Below, piece by piece: positions 13,059 to 21,287 of a DNA stretch of 64,000 bases. The notes below the pieces were generated by a model, which did not search any database, was not told where the DNA came from, and saw only the letters and a program-made list of their open reading frames with translations. The position numbers and the translations under genes were made by a program. Positions within the stretch are counted from its first letter, which is position 1, and the number at the start of each line of letters is the position of its first letter. Source of the stretch: Escherichia coli (GTDB taxonomy: Bacteria; Pseudomonadota; Gammaproteobacteria; Enterobacterales; Enterobacteriaceae); the NCBI RefSeq assembly GCF_036507355.1, contig NZ_AP027877.1; one strand, given 5' to 3'.

Positions 13059-14708
13059 TTAACCGCGCCACGCTTTATAGCGGTTAATCAGACCATTGGT
13101 CGAGCTATCGTGGCTGCTGATTTCTTTATCATCTTTCAGCTCTGGCAGAATACGGTTCGCCAGTTGTTTACCCAGCTCCACGCCCCACTGGTCGAAGGTG
13201 AAGATGTTCAGGATCACGCCCTGAGTAAAGATTTTGTGCTCATACAGCGCAATCAACGCACCCAGGCTGAACGGAGTGATTTCACGCAGCAGGATGGAGT
13301 TGGTCGGGCGGTTACCTTCGAACACTTTGAACGGCACCACGTAGTCAAGCGTTGCCGGATCTTTACCCTGATCGCGATATTCCTGCTCAACCACTTCGCG
13401 GGATTTACCAAACGCCAGCGCTTCGGTCTGAGCAAAGAAGTTAGACAGCAGTTTCTGGTGATGATCAGAGAGCGGGTTATGGGTGATAGCCGGGGCGATG
13501 AAATCGCACGGTACCATTTTGGTTCCCTGATGGATCAGCTGGTAGAACGCGTGCTGACCGTTAGTGCCTGGTTCACCCCAGATAATCGGGCCAGTCTGGT
13601 AATCCACAACGTTACCGTTACGGTCAACATACTTACCGTTGGACTCCATATTGCCCTGCTGGAAGTACGCCGCAAAACGGTGCATATACTGGTCATACGG
13701 CAGAATCGCTTCAGTTTCCGCACCAAAGAAATTGTTGTACCAGATGCCAATCAGCGCCAGCAAGACAGGCAGGTTTTTCTCGGCAGGCGTGGTGGAGAAA
13801 TGCTTGTCCATCGCGTGTGCGCCAGAAAGCAGTTCAACGAAGTTATCAAAGCCGATGGAGAGAACAATCGACAGGCCAATCGCTGACCACAAAGAGTAAC
13901 GGCCGCCGACCCAGTCCCAGAACTCGAACATGTTGGCAGTATCAATACCAAACTCGCCAACGGCTTTGGCATTGGTTGAGAGCGCCGCAAAGTGTTTCGC
14001 AACGTGTTTTTCATCACCTGCCGCTTTCAGGAACCAGTCACGCGCGCTATGGGCGTTGGTCATGGTTTCCTGAGTGGTGAAGGTTTTAGATGCTACCAGG
14101 AACAGCGTGGTTTCCGGGTTTACTTTTTTCAGCACTTCCGCGATATGAGTCCCATCGACGTTAGAAACAAAGTGCATGTTCAGGTGATTTTTGTACGGAC
14201 GCAGTGCTTCGGTCACCATGTACGGGCCGAGGTCAGAACCACCGATCCCGATGTTCACTACGTCAGTGATTGCTTTGCCGGTATAACCCTTCCACTCACC
14301 GGAAATAATCGCTTCCGAGAAGGTTTTCATCTTCTCCAGCACCGCGTTGACTTCCGGCATTACGTCTTTGCCATCAACCAGAATCGGGGTATTGCTACGG
14401 TTACGCAGCGCTACGTGCAGCACGGCGCGGTTTTCAGTGCGGTTGATCTTCTCGCCAGAGAACATCGACTTAATCGCGCCCGCCAGATCGCACTCTTTCG
14501 CCAGATCTTGTAATTTCGCCAGCGTCTCTTCAGTGATGCGGTTTTTGGAGTAATCCACCAGCATCTGATCGTCGAAGGTTGCGGAGAACTTAGAAAAACG
14601 ATCGCCGTCTTTAGCAAAAAGATCGGCGATCGTAACGTCTTTCATTTCATCGAAGTGTTTCTGTAGTGCCTGCCAGGCAGCGGTCTGCGTTGGATTGATG
14701 TTTTTCAT
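13059..14708 (-). CDS. pgi: glucose-6-phosphate isomerase Pgi (549 aa)
   Basis: ORF 13059..14714; [31 protein letters not shown]...; start at ATG two codons inside ORF-track start. Confidence 0.97.
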
Positions 14709-14949
14709 TAGCAATACTCTTCTGATTTTGAGAATTGTGACTTTGGAAGATTGTAGCGCCAGTCACAGAAAAATGTGATGGTTTTAGTGCCGTTAGCGTA
14801 ATGTTGAGTGTAAACCCTTAGCGCAGTGAAGCATTTATTAGCTGAACTACTGACCGCCAGGAGTGGATGAAAAATCCGCATGACCCCGTCGTTGACAACC
14901 GCCCCGCTCACCCTTTATTTATAAATGTACTACCTGCGCTAGCGCAGGC

Positions 14950-15200
14950 CAGAAGAGGCGCGTTGCCCAAGTAACGGTGTTGGAGGAGCCAGTCCTGTGA
15001 TAACACCTGAGGGGGTGCATCGCCGAGGTGATTGAACGGCTGGCCACGTTCATCATCGGCTACAGGGGCTGAATCCCCTGGGTTGTCACCAGAAGCGTTC
15101 GCAGTCGGGCGTTTCGCAAGTGGTGGAGCACTTCTGGGTGAAAATAGTAGCGAAGTATCGCTCTGCGCCCACCCGTCTTCCGCTCTTCCCTTGTGCCAAG
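14950..15200 (+). promoter_or_regulatory. lysine riboswitch (L-box) in lysC 5' leader
   Basis: Long structured leader upstream of lysC containing AGAGGCGC...GGAGGAGCC...CTGTGATAAC...GAGGGGG motifs characteristic of the lysC LYS element. Confidence 0.8.
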
Positions 15201-15232
15201 GCTGAAAATGGATCCCCTGACACGAGGTAGTT

Positions 15233-16582
15233 ATGTCTGAAATTGTTGTCTCCAAATTTGGCGGTACCAGCGTAGCTGATTTTGACGCCATGAACCGCAG
15301 CGCTGATATTGTGCTTTCTGATGCCAACGTGCGTTTAGTTGTCCTCTCGGCTTCTGCTGGTATCACTAATCTGCTGGTCGCTTTAGCTGAAGGGCTGGAA
15401 CCTGGCGAGCGATTCGAAAAACTCGACGCTATTCGCAACATCCAGTTTGCCATTCTGGAACGTCTGCGTTACCCGAACGTTATCCGTGAAGAGATTGAAC
15501 GTCTGCTGGAGAACATTACTGTTCTGGCAGAAGCGGCGGCGCTGGCAACGTCTCCGGCGCTGACAGATGAACTGGTCAGCCACGGCGAGCTGATGTCGAC
15601 CCTGCTGTTTGTCGAGATCCTGCGCGAACGCGATGTTCAGGCACAGTGGTTTGATGTACGTAAAGTGATGCGTACCAACGACCGATTTGGTCGTGCAGAG
15701 CCAGATGTAGCCGCGCTGGCGGAACTGGCCGCGCTGCAGCTGCTCCCACGCCTCAATGAAGGCTTAGTGATCACCCAGGGATTTATCGGTAGCGAAAATA
15801 AAGGTCGTACAACGACGCTTGGCCGTGGAGGCAGCGATTATACGGCAGCCTTGCTGGCGGAGGCTTTACACGCATCTCGTGTTGATATCTGGACCGACGT
15901 CCCGGGCATCTACACCACCGATCCACGCGTGGTTTCCGCAGCAAAACGCATTGATGAAATCGCGTTTGCCGAAGCAGCAGAGATGGCAACTTTTGGTGCA
16001 AAAGTACTGCATCCGGCAACATTGCTACCCGCAGTACGCAGCGATATCCCGGTCTTTGTCGGCTCCAGCAAAGACCCACGCGCAGGTGGTACGCTGGTGT
16101 GCAATAAAACTGAAAATCCGCCGCTGTTCCGCGCGCTGGCGCTTCGTCGCAATCAGACTCTGCTCACTTTGCACAGCCTGAATATGCTGCATTCTCGCGG
16201 CTTCCTCGCGGAAGTTTTCGGCATCCTCGCGCGGCATAATATTTCGGTAGACTTAATCACCACGTCAGAAGTGAGCGTGGCATTAACCCTTGATACCACC
16301 GGTTCAACCTCCACTGGCGATACGTTGCTGACGCAATCTCTGCTGATGGAGCTTTCCGCACTGTGCCGGGTGGAGGTGGAAGAAGGTCTGGCGCTGGTCG
16401 CGTTGATTGGCAATGACCTGTCAAAAGCCTGCGGCGTTGGCAAAGAGGTGTTCGGCGTACTGGAACCGTTCAACATTCGCATGATTTGTTACGGCGCATC
16501 CAGCCATAACCTGTGCTTCCTGGTGCCCGGCGAAGATGCCGAGCAGGTGGTGCAGAAGCTGCATTTTAATTTGTTTGAGTAA
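15233..16582 (+). CDS. lysC: lysine-sensitive aspartokinase III LysC (449 aa)
   Basis: ORF track; MSEIVVSKFGGTSVADFDAMNRSADIVLSDANVRLVVLSASAGITN... Confidence 0.98.
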   Translation: MSEIVVSKFGGTSVADFDAMNRSADIVLSDANVRLVVLSASAGITNLLVALAEGLEPGERFEKLDAIRNIQFAILERLRYPNVIREEIERLLENITVLAEAAALATSPALTDELVSHGELMSTLLFVEILRERDVQAQWFDVRKVMRTNDRFGRAEPDVAALAELAALQLLPRLNEGLVITQGFIGSENKGRTTTLGRGGSDYTAALLAEALHASRVDIWTDVPGIYTTDPRVVSAAKRIDEIAFAEAAEMATFGAKVLHPATLLPAVRSDIPVFVGSSKDPRAGGTLVCNKTENPPLFRALALRRNQTLLTLHSLNMLHSRGFLAEVFGILARHNISVDLITTSEVSVALTLDTTGSTSTGDTLLTQSLLMELSALCRVEVEEGLALVALIGNDLSKACGVGKEVFGVLEPFNIRMICYGASSHNLCFLVPGEDAEQVVQKLHFNLFE

Positions 16583-16726
16583 TATTTCCCTACTGGCGTA
16601 TAACGCTCACCAATTGTTATACGCCATCCTCACTGAAAACATAGATTAAATAATATCTGAAAAGCAAAATCACTCCTGTAGAACAGTATTATAACCACCG
16701 AAAAATATCATTTAACAGGAGTGTTA

Positions 16727-17656
16727 ATGGCTACTTTAATGGAAAAGGATGCACTTTTAAACGGCGCCAGTCAGTGCATCGCGTTTTTATCAAATATCGT
16801 CGACAGTTGTTTTTCCTCACAAGTTCAGGACTCAGACGATGAGCTATCACAATTAGTCAGCTATCGCGACAATCTTTATTCCACTCCAGCAGAAATTGTT
16901 GATTTTACACAGGGAATGTTACGCCTCCAGCAGGTCAGAAAAAAGTATCAGCGTGAATTTAATAATACTGCGCATTCAGAAAATAAAGCGTCTTTTGATT
17001 CTATTTGGCAGCGTCTGACAAACCATGACGTCACATCCCAGCAGAGTCCCATTGGTTTTGTTTTAGGTGGACAACCAGGAGCCGGAAAATCCATCCTAAT
17101 CGAATTAGCAAAAAGGGAAACAAAGAATAATATAATGATTATTAATGGTGATGATTTCAGATTTCTACACCCTGATTTTAATTATATATATCAAACTTAT
17201 GGCGACGATTTTGTTACCCATACGGCAAAATTTTCCGGCGAAACGGTCGAACGTGCAATAGAGAGGGCCATAGCCAATAAACTCAATATTGTTGTCGAAG
17301 GAACATTTCGTAATGCCGCTACGCCGCTACAAACATTAAAAAAACTCAAAGATGCAGGCTACCGAACAGAAGTCATGATAAAAACCACCTCAGCGGCATT
17401 AAGCTGGGAAAGCACCAACGAACGGTATAATAAGGACAAAGAGGCGGGAAATATCGCCCGCAAAGTGGATAAAAATCACCATGATATCGTCACCGATTTG
17501 CTAGCAGAAAATGCCAGCAAGGTGTTTGCTTCAAACCTGGCAGATAAGTTTGCGGTGTATTCGCGTGAGAAGATGATATTTAGTTCACAAGCGGCAACCA
17601 ATTGCGATATTGCAACGCTTATACAAAATGAAATCAGCGGAAGTGCACAAGAATAA
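16727..17656 (+). CDS. zeta-toxin-family P-loop kinase with ~100-aa N-terminal extension (EzeT-like single-chain toxin/antitoxin candidate)
   Basis: ORF 16721..17656; ATG at 16727 preceded by AGGAG; Walker A GGQPGAGKS followed by motifs resembling zeta/PezT UDP-GlcNAc kinases (INGDDFR..HP, EGTFR); AT-rich codon usage; not part of the K-12 lysC-yjbD arrangement as I recall it. Confidence 0.7.
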   Translation: MATLMEKDALLNGASQCIAFLSNIVDSCFSSQVQDSDDELSQLVSYRDNLYSTPAEIVDFTQGMLRLQQVRKKYQREFNNTAHSENKASFDSIWQRLTNHDVTSQQSPIGFVLGGQPGAGKSILIELAKRETKNNIMIINGDDFRFLHPDFNYIYQTYGDDFVTHTAKFSGETVERAIERAIANKLNIVVEGTFRNAATPLQTLKKLKDAGYRTEVMIKTTSAALSWESTNERYNKDKEAGNIARKVDKNHHDIVTDLLAENASKVFASNLADKFAVYSREKMIFSSQAATNCDIATLIQNEISGSAQE

Positions 17657-17688
17657 TAAAAGCTGATGACCTGAAATAACGCCGGGCA

Positions 17689-18489
17689 TCACGCCCGGCG
17701 CATTACCGTCTGGTACAGTAAGCTATCCAGTTTCTTAACGTCCCCTTCTCTACTATCCGGTAACACAGGCGGAATTTCCCCACGCGCCAGTTCCGCATGG
17801 ATAAACGCATGTAGCAATGGACGGCGTGGGCCATATTCCGCTTCACCCGCACGCTGTTTACGTTCCAGTAATTCATCTATTTCTGCGCGTAAGGCCGCAT
17901 CCAACTCACTTCCCGCCAGCAATTCGGAAAAACGCATTGGCGGTACGCCTTTTCCCGCTTCAACCCAACGCACGGCCAGCAACGGACGCAGCACGTAAAA
18001 GTATTTTTTCAGTCGAACTTCATCGCCCTGCAAATATCCGCGGAAGTTTTTCTGCGCCATCGAATAGTAATGCCAGCGCGCACGCAGCGGAGAAAACCAC
18101 GTTGGGACCATTGCCTTAAGCGCCGTTATCGTTTCTTCATCTTGTTGATAGACCACCGGAGAATCCAGCCATTCTATCAGCGTCGGGTTCGCGCCTTTCA
18201 ATAATCCCAGCGCCTTACGCCACTCCCAACCGGAAACATCTAACTCGTCGTCGATGGGCAGCTCAATAACATCGCGCGGTGACTCTACTCGCAGATACCA
18301 TTCCAGCGGGTGAACATACAAAAACCGTACATCGTAGTCGCTGTCGGGCGAGGCAAATCCCCAACCGCGACTCCCCGATTCACAGGCGTACAGTACTTTC
18401 ACATCATACCGCCGTTCAATTTCTTTTAACTGCTGCGATACCCTTTCGCGCATCGCAGCACTGACTCCATTTAATGGCATGTTACTCAC
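17689..18489 (-). CDS. Pol-beta-superfamily nucleotidyltransferase (266 aa), uncharacterised
   Basis: ORF track; ESGSRGWGFASPDSDYDVRFLY = GS-x9-DxD nucleotidyltransferase motif; start overlaps stop of upstream SPFH gene by 4 bp. Confidence 0.7.
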   Translation of the reverse strand: MSNMPLNGVSAAMRERVSQQLKEIERRYDVKVLYACESGSRGWGFASPDSDYDVRFLYVHPLEWYLRVESPRDVIELPIDDELDVSGWEWRKALGLLKGANPTLIEWLDSPVVYQQDEETITALKAMVPTWFSPLRARWHYYSMAQKNFRGYLQGDEVRLKKYFYVLRPLLAVRWVEAGKGVPPMRFSELLAGSELDAALRAEIDELLERKQRAGEAEYGPRRPLLHAFIHAELARGEIPPVLPDSREGDVKKLDSLLYQTVMRRA

Positions 18490-19613
18490 CCTTTGATATT
18501 AACCAACCCGTGCAGAACCTGATCCAGACCGCCAAATACAGAGATGTTATCAATCCGCTCAGCCACTCTCTCCAGCGTTTCCAGCTCTTTTAAACGCAAC
18601 GCTACCGGATTGTTCTCCATGACTTTGGCGGTGTTCAGTAACGAGCGCGTCGCTGCCGTTTCTTCACGTCGGCGAATCACATTCGCCTGCGCAGATTTCT
18701 CTGCCTCAACCAGCTGCGCAAGGATATTTTTCATATCGCCAGGCAGGACGATATCTTTCACCCCTAATGAAGCAATCTCCATACCGAACGGCTTCATGCG
18801 CGATTTCACCTGTTCGCTGACAACGTCATCAATGACCTGTTTATCTTCCAGCAATTCATCCAGCGTACGCGTACCTACCACTTCACGCAGTGCAAATTGC
18901 AATTCCCGATACAAATGATCAATCGGCTTCGTTAACTGACTAAATGCTAATAACACGTCGCTGTAGCGCCAGTTAGCCGCGAGGTTAATCCGCAGATTGA
19001 CCTTATCTTTCGTTAAGATTTCTTGCCCGCTGACTTCCAGTACCTGCAAGCGGGTGTCAACCACTTCAGCTTCAACCAGATGGTTAATTTTCCAGTACGC
19101 GGTAAGCCCCGGCGGTAACAGCGCCTGCGTTTCACCATCGATTTTCAGCACGCCTACATGCCAGGCCGGAACCTGCACCGTCAGTATCGCATCGCGGCCT
19201 TTAACAACTCCTTTGCGCCGTGGCTGTAATACCGCATTCATCACCTCCGTTTGTACCGGGACTTGCTGCGTATTCATCCGCACCAGCGTCAAATCATCCT
19301 CTACACGCCAGTACAAACGACGCGTTGATGGCGGCAGGATCTCCAACAAAATACCGTCCATATACAACACCCCGGCTTCAGTCTCCGACAAGTCTGCCAC
19401 CAGGCAATATTTCTCCACCCAATCAGGCTGAAAGCGGCGCAAATAATCCGCAAGCACGTCGGGAACTTCGCTACCATCCAGCGTAATCAGCAACACTTCC
19501 GGGGTATTTAACCAGGGTAAAATATGCTCGCCTGCATGCAGCACTTTGTAGTAATCGCCGTTTCTGGAGAGTAATGCCAGCTGATCTTTTCTTACGCTTA
19601 TTTTTTTAATCAT
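18486..19613 (-). CDS. SPFH/band-7 (stomatin/flotillin-like) domain protein without obvious N-terminal TM helix (375 aa)
   Basis: ORF track; C-terminal half has band-7 hallmarks (GMEIASLGVKDIVLPGDMKNILAQLVEAEKSAQANVIRRREETAA...LRLKELETLERVAERI); hydrophilic N-terminus. Confidence 0.7.
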   Translation of the reverse strand: MIKKISVRKDQLALLSRNGDYYKVLHAGEHILPWLNTPEVLLITLDGSEVPDVLADYLRRFQPDWVEKYCLVADLSETEAGVLYMDGILLEILPPSTRRLYWRVEDDLTLVRMNTQQVPVQTEVMNAVLQPRRKGVVKGRDAILTVQVPAWHVGVLKIDGETQALLPPGLTAYWKINHLVEAEVVDTRLQVLEVSGQEILTKDKVNLRINLAANWRYSDVLLAFSQLTKPIDHLYRELQFALREVVGTRTLDELLEDKQVIDDVVSEQVKSRMKPFGMEIASLGVKDIVLPGDMKNILAQLVEAEKSAQANVIRRREETAATRSLLNTAKVMENNPVALRLKELETLERVAERIDNISVFGGLDQVLHGLVNIKG

Positions 19614-20141
19614 TATCTATTCCTTGCTTAATAGCCGTCGCGGAAGCAGACACGAAGCGACAGGGGAATTCCCTTTTGCCTGTTACCCGGCATCTTTATC
19701 GGCGACGTTATCGGGGACCGCAGACTGCGCAATCCCTCATTTTTTATTTAATAAGTTACAACCAGTATTCATTTCAGGAATGAATGTGGGAATCGAACCC
19801 GTAATTGGCGTCAAAGGCTGATGGAACACGCCCGGAAAACAGCCTGGCCGTTCCTGGTGTGCCGACGGGGTTTAACCCCCTTTGTAATTCAGTATCAACG
19901 CAAAAGTGTTATTGCGAGAAGCGTGCCAGAAGTGATAAAAAATTTTAATTACATGAAAAATAAAGATTTAATAAATCATTATTGTTTGTAGGGGGAGATT
20001 TTTTCGCTAAATTTGTATCTGTATTTATCGTCAATTATCAAGAAAGATAAATATTTAAGAAGAGAACAAAGGAATATTATCAGTTCTGCTTGCAAATAAA
20101 TTCCCGTACACTGAACTATCCGATTAACAGAGGGCACCATC

Positions 20142-20414
20142 ATGGCACTCCCCCGTATTACTCAAAAAGAGATGACTGAGCGTGAACAGCGCGAACTGAA
20201 GACGCTGCTGGATCGCGCGCGTATTGCACATGGTCGCGTGCTGACCAACGCCGAAACCAACAGCATTAAGAAAGAGTACATCGATAAATTAATGGTCGAG
20301 CGTGAGGCTGAAGCGAAAAAAGCCCGCCAGTTAAAGAAAAAGCAGGCTTATAAACCGGATCCTGAAGCGTCATTTAGCTGGTCAGCAAATACGTCGACGC
20401 GCGGCAGGCGCTGA
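20142..20414 (+). CDS. yjbD: DUF3811 protein YjbD (90 aa)
   Basis: ORF track; MALPRITQKEMTEREQRELKTLLDRARIAHGRVL... Confidence 0.85.
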   Translation: MALPRITQKEMTEREQRELKTLLDRARIAHGRVLTNAETNSIKKEYIDKLMVEREAEAKKARQLKKKQAYKPDPEASFSWSANTSTRGRR

Positions 20415-21287
20415 TTAGCGCCCCTTCTTTTTACGCCCCGGCGAGGTAAAACGCTTACCGTTGGACGCCGGGCGACCGCCTTTTTCCGCCGTTTTTTCCA
20501 TCTTAACGACTGGACGTTTGATGCCCGCCGTTTTCGGTTTAGCCTTCGCTTTAGGTTTTGCCTCGGAAGAGGAATTTTCAATGAGCTTAAAGAGGTCGAT
20601 TAACTCATCGTCGGTTAAATCGCGCCACTCCCCCAGTGGAATGCCGTTTAAGCTGACGTTCATAATGCGCGTACGTTCCAGCTTTTTCACTTCATAGCCG
20701 AAATGCTCGCACATGCGCCGGATCTGACGGTTCAGCCCCTGCACCAGGGTAATGCGGAAGACAAACGGCGCTTCTTTTTTGACTTTGCACTTTTTAGTCA
20801 CCGTCCCGAGGATCGGCACCCCCGCCCCCATACCACGAATAAATTCATCGGTAATCGGTTTATCGACCGTCACCAGATACTCTTTCTCATGATCGTTACC
20901 CGCACGGAGGATCTTATTCACCAGATCGCCGTGATTGGTGAGGAAAATCAGCCCCTGGGAGTCTTTATCCAGGCGGCCAATCGGGAACACGCGTTTGCTG
21001 TGGTTAACAAAATCGACAATGTTATCGCGCTCGCCATCTTCGGTGGTGCTGACAATACCGACGGGTTTGTTCAGGGCGATAAGTACCAAATCTTCGGCTT
21101 CCCGAGGCTCAATCAACTGACCGTTTACTTTCACAACGTCGCCGGGTTTCACCTGATCGCCAATGGTGGCTCGCTTGCCATTAAGGAACACATTGCCTTG
21201 CTCGATATAGCGATCCGCTTCGCGGCGTGAGCAAATTCCGCTTTCGCTGATGTATTTATTTAAACGGACTGATGAGTCGGGCAGCAT
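20415..21287 (-). CDS. rluF: 23S rRNA pseudouridine synthase RluF (290 aa)
   Basis: ORF track; S4 domain plus RluA/RsuA catalytic motif ([22 protein letters not shown]); Lys-rich C-tail. Confidence 0.93.

Follow-up and report, generated by a model that had tools for sequence, protein, structure and literature searches.

An intact, divergent allele of the single-chain zeta toxin EzeT on an accessory islet of the Escherichia coli chromosome

The ezeT gene and its product

We describe here ezeT, a zeta toxin gene in a stretch of Escherichia coli DNA of 64,000 nucleotides (contig NZ_AP027877.1), which we call the window. The gene order around it is pgi, a lysine riboswitch, lysC, ezeT, a convergent pair of genes for a nucleotidyltransferase and a slipin, yjbD and rluF, and this order is identical at the locus of the reference EzeT. 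The open reading frame (ORF) that the first-pass annotation had reported, with a product of 309 amino acids (aa), is present as described, and the features that we assign to it are the following.

16727..17656, + strand: ezeT coding sequence, a minor diverged allele; an uninterrupted ORF of 309 codons plus stop
16727..16975, + strand: N-terminal cis-antitoxin domain, codons 1-83; predicted three-helix bundle with helices at residues 4-27, 32-52 and 60-78
16799-16852, + strand: hypervariable antitoxin segment, codons 25-42
16976..17050, + strand: linker and fusion junction, codons 84-108; predicted local distance difference test score (pLDDT) 75-88
17030..17572, + strand: zeta/PezT-type UDP-GlcNAc kinase domain, codons 102-282
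17066-17092, + strand: Walker A motif GGQPGAGKS, residues 114-122, with K121
17150-17152, + strand: codon of the catalytic Asp142
17297-17311, + strand: E-G-T-F-R motif, with T193 and R195

The start codon is the ATG at 16727, with an AGGAG Shine-Dalgarno sequence at 16717-16721, 5 nt before it. We take this ATG rather than the GTG at 16721 given by the ORF lister because MATLMEKD opens every homologue. The Walker A motif had been recognized correctly in the first pass, although its position, given there as about residue 105, has to be moved to residues 114-122.

Over its full length and without a gap, the product is identical to WP_000212693.1 at 273 of 308 residues (89%). That protein is the product of the syntenic gene in E. 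coli O111:H8, and a 2023 review gives the same accession for the experimentally validated EzeT, whose gene it places beside that of lysine-sensitive aspartokinase 3 (lysC) in strains of phylogroup B1 (PMC10532202). Because gapless identity at this level is combined with the same synteny, the window gene is ezeT itself and not merely EzeT-like. The earlier comparison with a single-chain zeta toxin carrying a cis antitoxin domain was therefore sound and can be sharpened to orthology. The system is already known, having been characterized in 2015, and it is already annotated: RefSeq labels the gene "zeta toxin family protein" in 1,433 complete E. coli genomes, so that any claim to a novel instance falls away. 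What the window holds is a divergent, intact allele of EzeT.

The kinase domain has the zeta-type phosphotransferase fold. Pfam Zeta_toxin (PF06414) matches residues 102-282 with an E value of 2.2e-40 over model positions 10-189 of 199, and the PDB sequences of PezT (2p5t_B, E 3e-32) and zeta (1gvn_B, E 3e-27) are matched as well, which bears out a resemblance previously judged by eye. The NCBIfam PezT model is matched at E 2e-37; that this falls under its equivalog cutoff is to be expected of a member from outside the streptococci. Alignment with L011, an authentic zeta encoded on a plasmid of Enterococcus, and with L012, a protein of the PezT type, gives the residue correspondence below; the roles of zeta D67, E100, T118, R120 and T128 are taken from PMC3062530, according to which D67 deprotonates the 3'-OH of UDP-N-acetylglucosamine (UNAG).

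Zeta K46 (PezT K45), Walker A lysine: K121
Zeta D67 (PezT D66), catalytic base: D142
Zeta E100, ribose contact: E175
Zeta T118, beta-phosphate contact: T193
Zeta R120, contact to the UDP phosphates: R195
Zeta T128, uracil contact: T203
Zeta E116, R158 and R171, conserved: E191, R233 and R245

None of the 35 differences between the two alleles hits a mapped functional residue. Zeta T121, which makes no substrate contact, corresponds to N196 in the window allele and in the reference EzeT alike.

Reviews of the published work report that full-length EzeT is harmless and that a truncated form, EzeT deltaN83, lowers viability, permeabilizes cells and leads to accumulation of UNAG-3-phosphate (UNAG-3P) (PMC4803016, PMC4826407, PMC10532202). 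Residues 1-82 supplied in trans neutralize EzeT deltaN83 and restore growth, and EzeT deltaN83 is toxic only below 30 °C (PMC4803016).

We consider it very probable that the window ezeT is an intact chromosomal type II toxin-antitoxin allele contained in one polypeptide, a UNAG kinase held off by its N-terminal domain. In the mechanism that we propose, the C-terminal domain (about residues 102-290) would transfer phosphate from ATP to the 3'-OH of UNAG; the resulting UNAG-3P would be unusable for cell-wall synthesis, peptidoglycan synthesis would stall, and the cell would lyse. The N-terminal 83 residues, as a three-helix bundle, would keep the kinase off in cis, with the conserved start of helix 1 (MATLMEKDxL) most likely lying in the ATP site by analogy with epsilon and PezA. 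Activation would require that the N-terminal domain be removed or displaced. The parts of this scheme that we infer are the geometry by which the ATP site is blocked, the signal for activation, and a behavior of the window allele like that of the reference.

The antitoxin domain and its split relatives

When 1.84 billion representative proteins were searched with a profile of the N-terminal domain, its family came to 134 clusters, formed at 50% identity (P0121-P0253, alignment A4). Nearly all members are free-standing proteins of 65-100 aa, for which there is no Pfam model, and the fusions to zeta kinases amount to a handful with differing linker lengths (P0135, P0136, P0148, P0191, P0200 and P0230). 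The start of helix 1 is the most conserved part of the family, with M1, T3, M5, K7, D8 and L10 each at 90% or more and with a common motif, MATLMEKDvLiE. It is also where the AlphaFold2 (AF2) model is firm, pLDDT being 95 for residues 1-20; confidence is lowest in residues 25-42. In epsilon-type antitoxins it is the start of helix 1 that is reported to protrude into the ATP site (PMC5923241). When three distant free-standing members were checked, two were found to precede Zeta_toxin genes and the third an unannotated gene for 92 aa. Many zeta toxins of Gram-negative bacteria that look like orphans could be annotated with the help of this family.

Several entries in the family are of a different kind. 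In P0213 (220 aa), the N-terminal domain is joined to a Cys-rich C-terminal part and not to a kinase. P0142 is encoded on small Rep3/Mob plasmids (L015 1254-1790, L016 2501-3037), where the next gene encodes 92 aa with no Pfam match and is not a zeta kinase. Entries P0121-P0129, P0145 and P0147 are frameshifted or truncated N-termini of E. coli EzeT that stem from occasional pseudogenes or assembly errors.

The authors of the EzeT work proposed a conventional operon of two genes, later fused, as the origin of the gene (PMC4826407). The kinases most closely related to the EzeT kinase domain, P0009-P0012, are 68-70% identical to it and, because their P-loop lies at residue 32, they lack the N-terminal domain. 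All of the closest split kinases have a gene for 82-88 aa immediately upstream that overlaps the kinase gene by 11 nt. The first 13 residues of this upstream antitoxin product are those of EzeT, and the product is 53-54% identical to EzeT residues 1-80 (E 1e-28 and 1e-29). The split pairs lie on metagenome and Logan contigs at the following positions.

L003 3763-4699: split pair in a chromosomal-looking context
L005 and L006 3763-4801: split pair with ParB and PsiA genes nearby
L009 2763-3804: split pair with ParB and PsiA genes nearby
L010 2071-3064: split pair with a type IV secretion system coupling protein gene nearby

The split kinase begins at the position of EzeT residue 84, where the published deltaN83 truncation also has its boundary, and the first linker codons of ezeT align with the region around the toxin start codon of the split homologues. 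At the junction, the fused genes are longer than the split ones by 11 nt in E. coli and by 14 nt in Pseudocitrobacter. Both lengths are of the form 3n+2 and thus bring the two overlapping frames into one, so that the junction difference accounts for the fusion. At the level of sequence, the split relatives directly support the origin by fusion put forward in the EzeT work.

Plasmid or conjugation genes accompany the split pair in three of its four distinct contexts. A search of PLSDB plasmids did not find the split form, and both of its matches are mislabeled E. coli chromosome records that carry the fused gene. In a neighbor-joining tree of kinase domains, E. coli EzeT, the split pairs and the fused EzeT of Pseudocitrobacter form one clade with 100% bootstrap support. 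Because the order inside this clade has 48% support, there may have been either one fusion, followed by fission, or two independent fusions.

The ezeT islet in Escherichia coli

The surroundings of ezeT are those of an accessory islet, whose parts and neighboring elements are listed here.

14945-15141, + strand: lysine riboswitch RF00168 (99.5 bits) within the leader of lysC, a usual feature of E. coli
16583..20011, both strands: accessory islet of 3,429 bp that replaces 122 bp and comprises ezeT, its spacer and the convergent two-gene operon
16583..16726, + strand: lysC-ezeT spacer of 144 nt, part of the islet
16594-16626, + strand: hairpin directly after lysC, with a 12-bp stem and no U tract (-15.7 kcal/mol, z -5.7)
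16687-16695, + strand: -10-like hexamers TATTAT/TATAAC with no -35 partner
17680..17700, either strand: GC-rich hairpin between the convergent ezeT and nucleotidyltransferase genes, with an 8-bp stem and a 5-nt loop
17689-18489, - strand: RlaP-family nucleotidyltransferase (PF10127, E 1e-96)
18486-19613, - strand: SPFH/Band-7 slipin-like protein (Band_7 E 1e-24), its gene overlapping that of the nucleotidyltransferase by 4 nt

The spacer runs for 144 nt from the lysC stop codon (16580-16582), one fewer than had been counted in the first pass, and is 98.6% identical to that of the reference EzeT locus. ORF enumeration bears out the earlier statement that no small ORF precedes the gene: the spacer has chance ORFs alone, the longest on the + strand being one of 37 aa that begins inside lysC and is out of frame, and the rest are of at most 22 aa. 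An Rfam scan of 14500-20500 at E of 1 or below found no known RNA in the spacer, the lysine riboswitch being its sole match. The first-pass reading thus stands on each point that could have overturned it, since the Zeta_toxin match is strong, the catalytic residues are kept, and the spacer holds neither a separate antitoxin ORF nor a known small RNA.

The ezeT promoter has been described as weak, with a -10 element and no -35 element (PMC4803016). A consensus scan of the spacer found no two-hexamer promoter, which is consistent with the published description without locating the promoter. The hairpin directly after lysC belongs to the islet and not to the core genome; with no U tract, it may either end lysC transcription or allow it to continue into ezeT. 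Downstream, the hairpin at 17680-17700 is a centroid stem on both strands (z -2.5 and -2.8) and extends over the stop codon of the gene on the minus strand; it is predicted to be a shared transcription stop and is likely to act as one.

The boundaries of the islet are sharp. In the empty-site genome L013, homology stops exactly at the lysC stop codon and restarts at window position 20012, and it is for this reason that we treat ezeT, its spacer and the nucleotidyltransferase-slipin operon as one islet. We considered the nucleotidyltransferase and the slipin as parts of the toxin module and rejected them, as their genes are convergent to ezeT, are absent beside the Pseudocitrobacter ezeT, and have been lost or kept independently of ezeT. 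In strain XJ34 (L002 7155-7664), ezeT is intact but the nucleotidyltransferase gene is gone, as is half of the slipin gene; the ezeT of XJ34 is the closest allele among the matches listed, at 99.3% nucleotide identity. Strain E20 (L014 1-4001, NZ_CP121147) keeps both neighbors and has P2-like prophage genes in place of ezeT, with prophage tail and baseplate genes abutting the nucleotidyltransferase gene. Because a prophage sits there in E20, the lysC-yjbD interval appears to be a hotspot of integration or replacement.

Across 5,426 complete E. coli genomes, ezeT is present in 1,433, as a single copy and always on the chromosome, and the islet in about 1,424 (about 26%). At least 80% of the region is carried by 1,431 of the 1,433 ezeT-positive genomes. 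The haplotype of the window is rare, reaching at least 95% nucleotide identity in 47 of them.

Measured against the O111:H8 reference, synonymous divergence (dS) is 0.44 for ezeT and 0.18-0.19 for its islet neighbors. It is 0.25 for yjbD, whereas pgi, lysC and rluF have values of 0.03-0.06 (0.03-0.05 for the first two). Because dS in the islet is far above that of the flanking genes, we read the islet as consisting of old diverged haplotypes; taken with yjbD, the values indicate either such haplotypes or import from another lineage. Thus, the ezeT of E. coli, carried on a mobile islet of 3.4 kb, comes in two or more haplotypes that have diverged deeply.

The ratio of nonsynonymous to synonymous divergence (dN/dS) against the reference is 0.14 for ezeT overall, about 0.17-0.18 for codons 1-83 and 0.11 for codons 84-308, and both domains are under purifying selection. 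Within the antitoxin domain, divergence is uneven. Across six alleles of E. coli, the first 24 residues are almost invariant, with one variable position, and in codons 25-42 variation affects 14 of 18 positions and reaches four states at most. Identity between the window allele and the reference falls to 69% in residues 23-83, and the pairwise dS of codons 23-83, about 1.2, suggests a mosaic origin. The low model confidence in residues 25-42 fits relaxed constraint at the far end of the bundle.

Alternative readings and known systems

Several observations weigh against our reading of ezeT as an intact kinase with a working cis antitoxin. Of the 35 differences from the protein that was tested, 19 fall in the antitoxin domain, and the window allele has I123 directly after the Walker A serine. 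A fixed arrangement of the two domains is putative, the support for it being the high predicted template modeling score (pTM) of the model. Furthermore, no sequence homology of the N-terminal domain to epsilon or PezA is detectable, so that the proposed blocking of the ATP site would rest on analogy of fold. A Pfam scan of the window domain gave no match to the epsilon family (PF08998, Epsilon_antitox), and 2 of 88 family members reach E of 0.1 or below against PF08998, the best at 5e-3. The hhalign probability for the domain is 0.1% against a 25-member epsilon profile and 0.3% each against epsilon alone and an antitoxin of the PezA type. Nothing credible among PDB sequences was found with domain profiles built from 8 and from 88 sequences, and homology to ng-epsilon1 was likewise not found.

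Alternatively, EzeT may be a phage-sensing switch for abortive infection, a role that had been raised in the first pass, in which a phage product or proteolysis induced by the phage displaces the N-terminal domain and the kinase lyses the cell before phage are released. We think this unlikely. The fused architecture is analogous to that of CapRel-SJ46, a comparison drawn in PMC10865869, but the literature that we found offers this analogy and no reported test. The islet is variable, and its site holds a P2-like prophage in another strain. A PHROG profile of 308 positions with function unknown (phrog_25145) matches EzeT end to end, yet 50,697 phage records (INPHARED) contain no copy of EzeT. 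In PADLOC-DB 2.0, the protein has one marginal match, to the candidate model PDC-M04B (E 0.0012 over 50 residues), and the nucleotidyltransferase, the slipin and yjbD have none. The hypervariability of residues 25-42 among E. coli alleles might suit a sensor, but dN/dS in the variable N-terminal domain (about 0.17-0.18) carries no signal of positive selection, and the segment has the lowest model confidence, as would fit relaxed constraint.

A more ambitious version, which we also regard as improbable, would have EzeT be a fused immune sensor whose haplotypes and outer-face segment at residues 25-42 were selected by phage or plasmid triggers, with the plasmid-borne split relatives as the ancestral state. 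If this were true, the split relatives in conjugative leading regions would represent an ancestral addiction or entry-exclusion form.

It is distinctly improbable, in our estimate, that the allele is a decayed or inert remnant that has lost its kinase activity or its regulation and persists by hitchhiking on the islet. Such decay would sit well with the published finding that the toxin domain is nonfunctional at 37 °C, the temperature of the gut (PMC4803016), with the absence of ezeT from 74% of complete E. coli genomes, and with the loss of ezeT in E20 and of its neighbors in XJ34. In addition, several database clusters are represented by N-terminal fragments with a frameshift, and the substitutions I57, M64 and I123 are unique to the window allele. 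However, the reading frame is intact, the catalytic and substrate residues are all kept, and at least 80% of the region persists in nearly every ezeT-positive genome (1,431 of 1,433). A dN/dS of 0.14 at a dS of 0.44 points to long-term purifying selection on both domains. That the kinase acts on a substrate other than UDP-GlcNAc, such as other UDP-sugars, as for gonococcal ng-zeta1, or nicotinamide adenine dinucleotide (NAD), as for AvrRxo1, is the least probable of the alternatives and highly unlikely.

Read as a UNAG kinase autoinhibited by its own N-terminal domain, the window protein is closest to the reference EzeT (WP_000212693.1), with which it shares the species, the site directly after lysC, the two-domain architecture, the length bar one extra C-terminal residue, the first 24 residues and the catalytic residues. 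The two alleles differ by 35 substitutions, which are concentrated in residues 25-83. The split EzeT-like pairs differ in consisting of two genes and in the longer C-terminal tails of their kinases. Epsilon/zeta of pSM19035 and PezAT of Streptococcus pneumoniae are likewise encoded by two genes, whereas EzeT holds antitoxin and toxin in one polypeptide and has neither the helix-turn-helix repressor domain of PezA nor the omega regulator. CapRel-SJ46 is unrelated in its folds and chemistry, being a tRNA pyrophosphokinase rather than a UNAG kinase, and its antitoxin domain is C-terminal; like EzeT, however, it joins a toxic enzyme domain and the domain that autoinhibits it in one chain.

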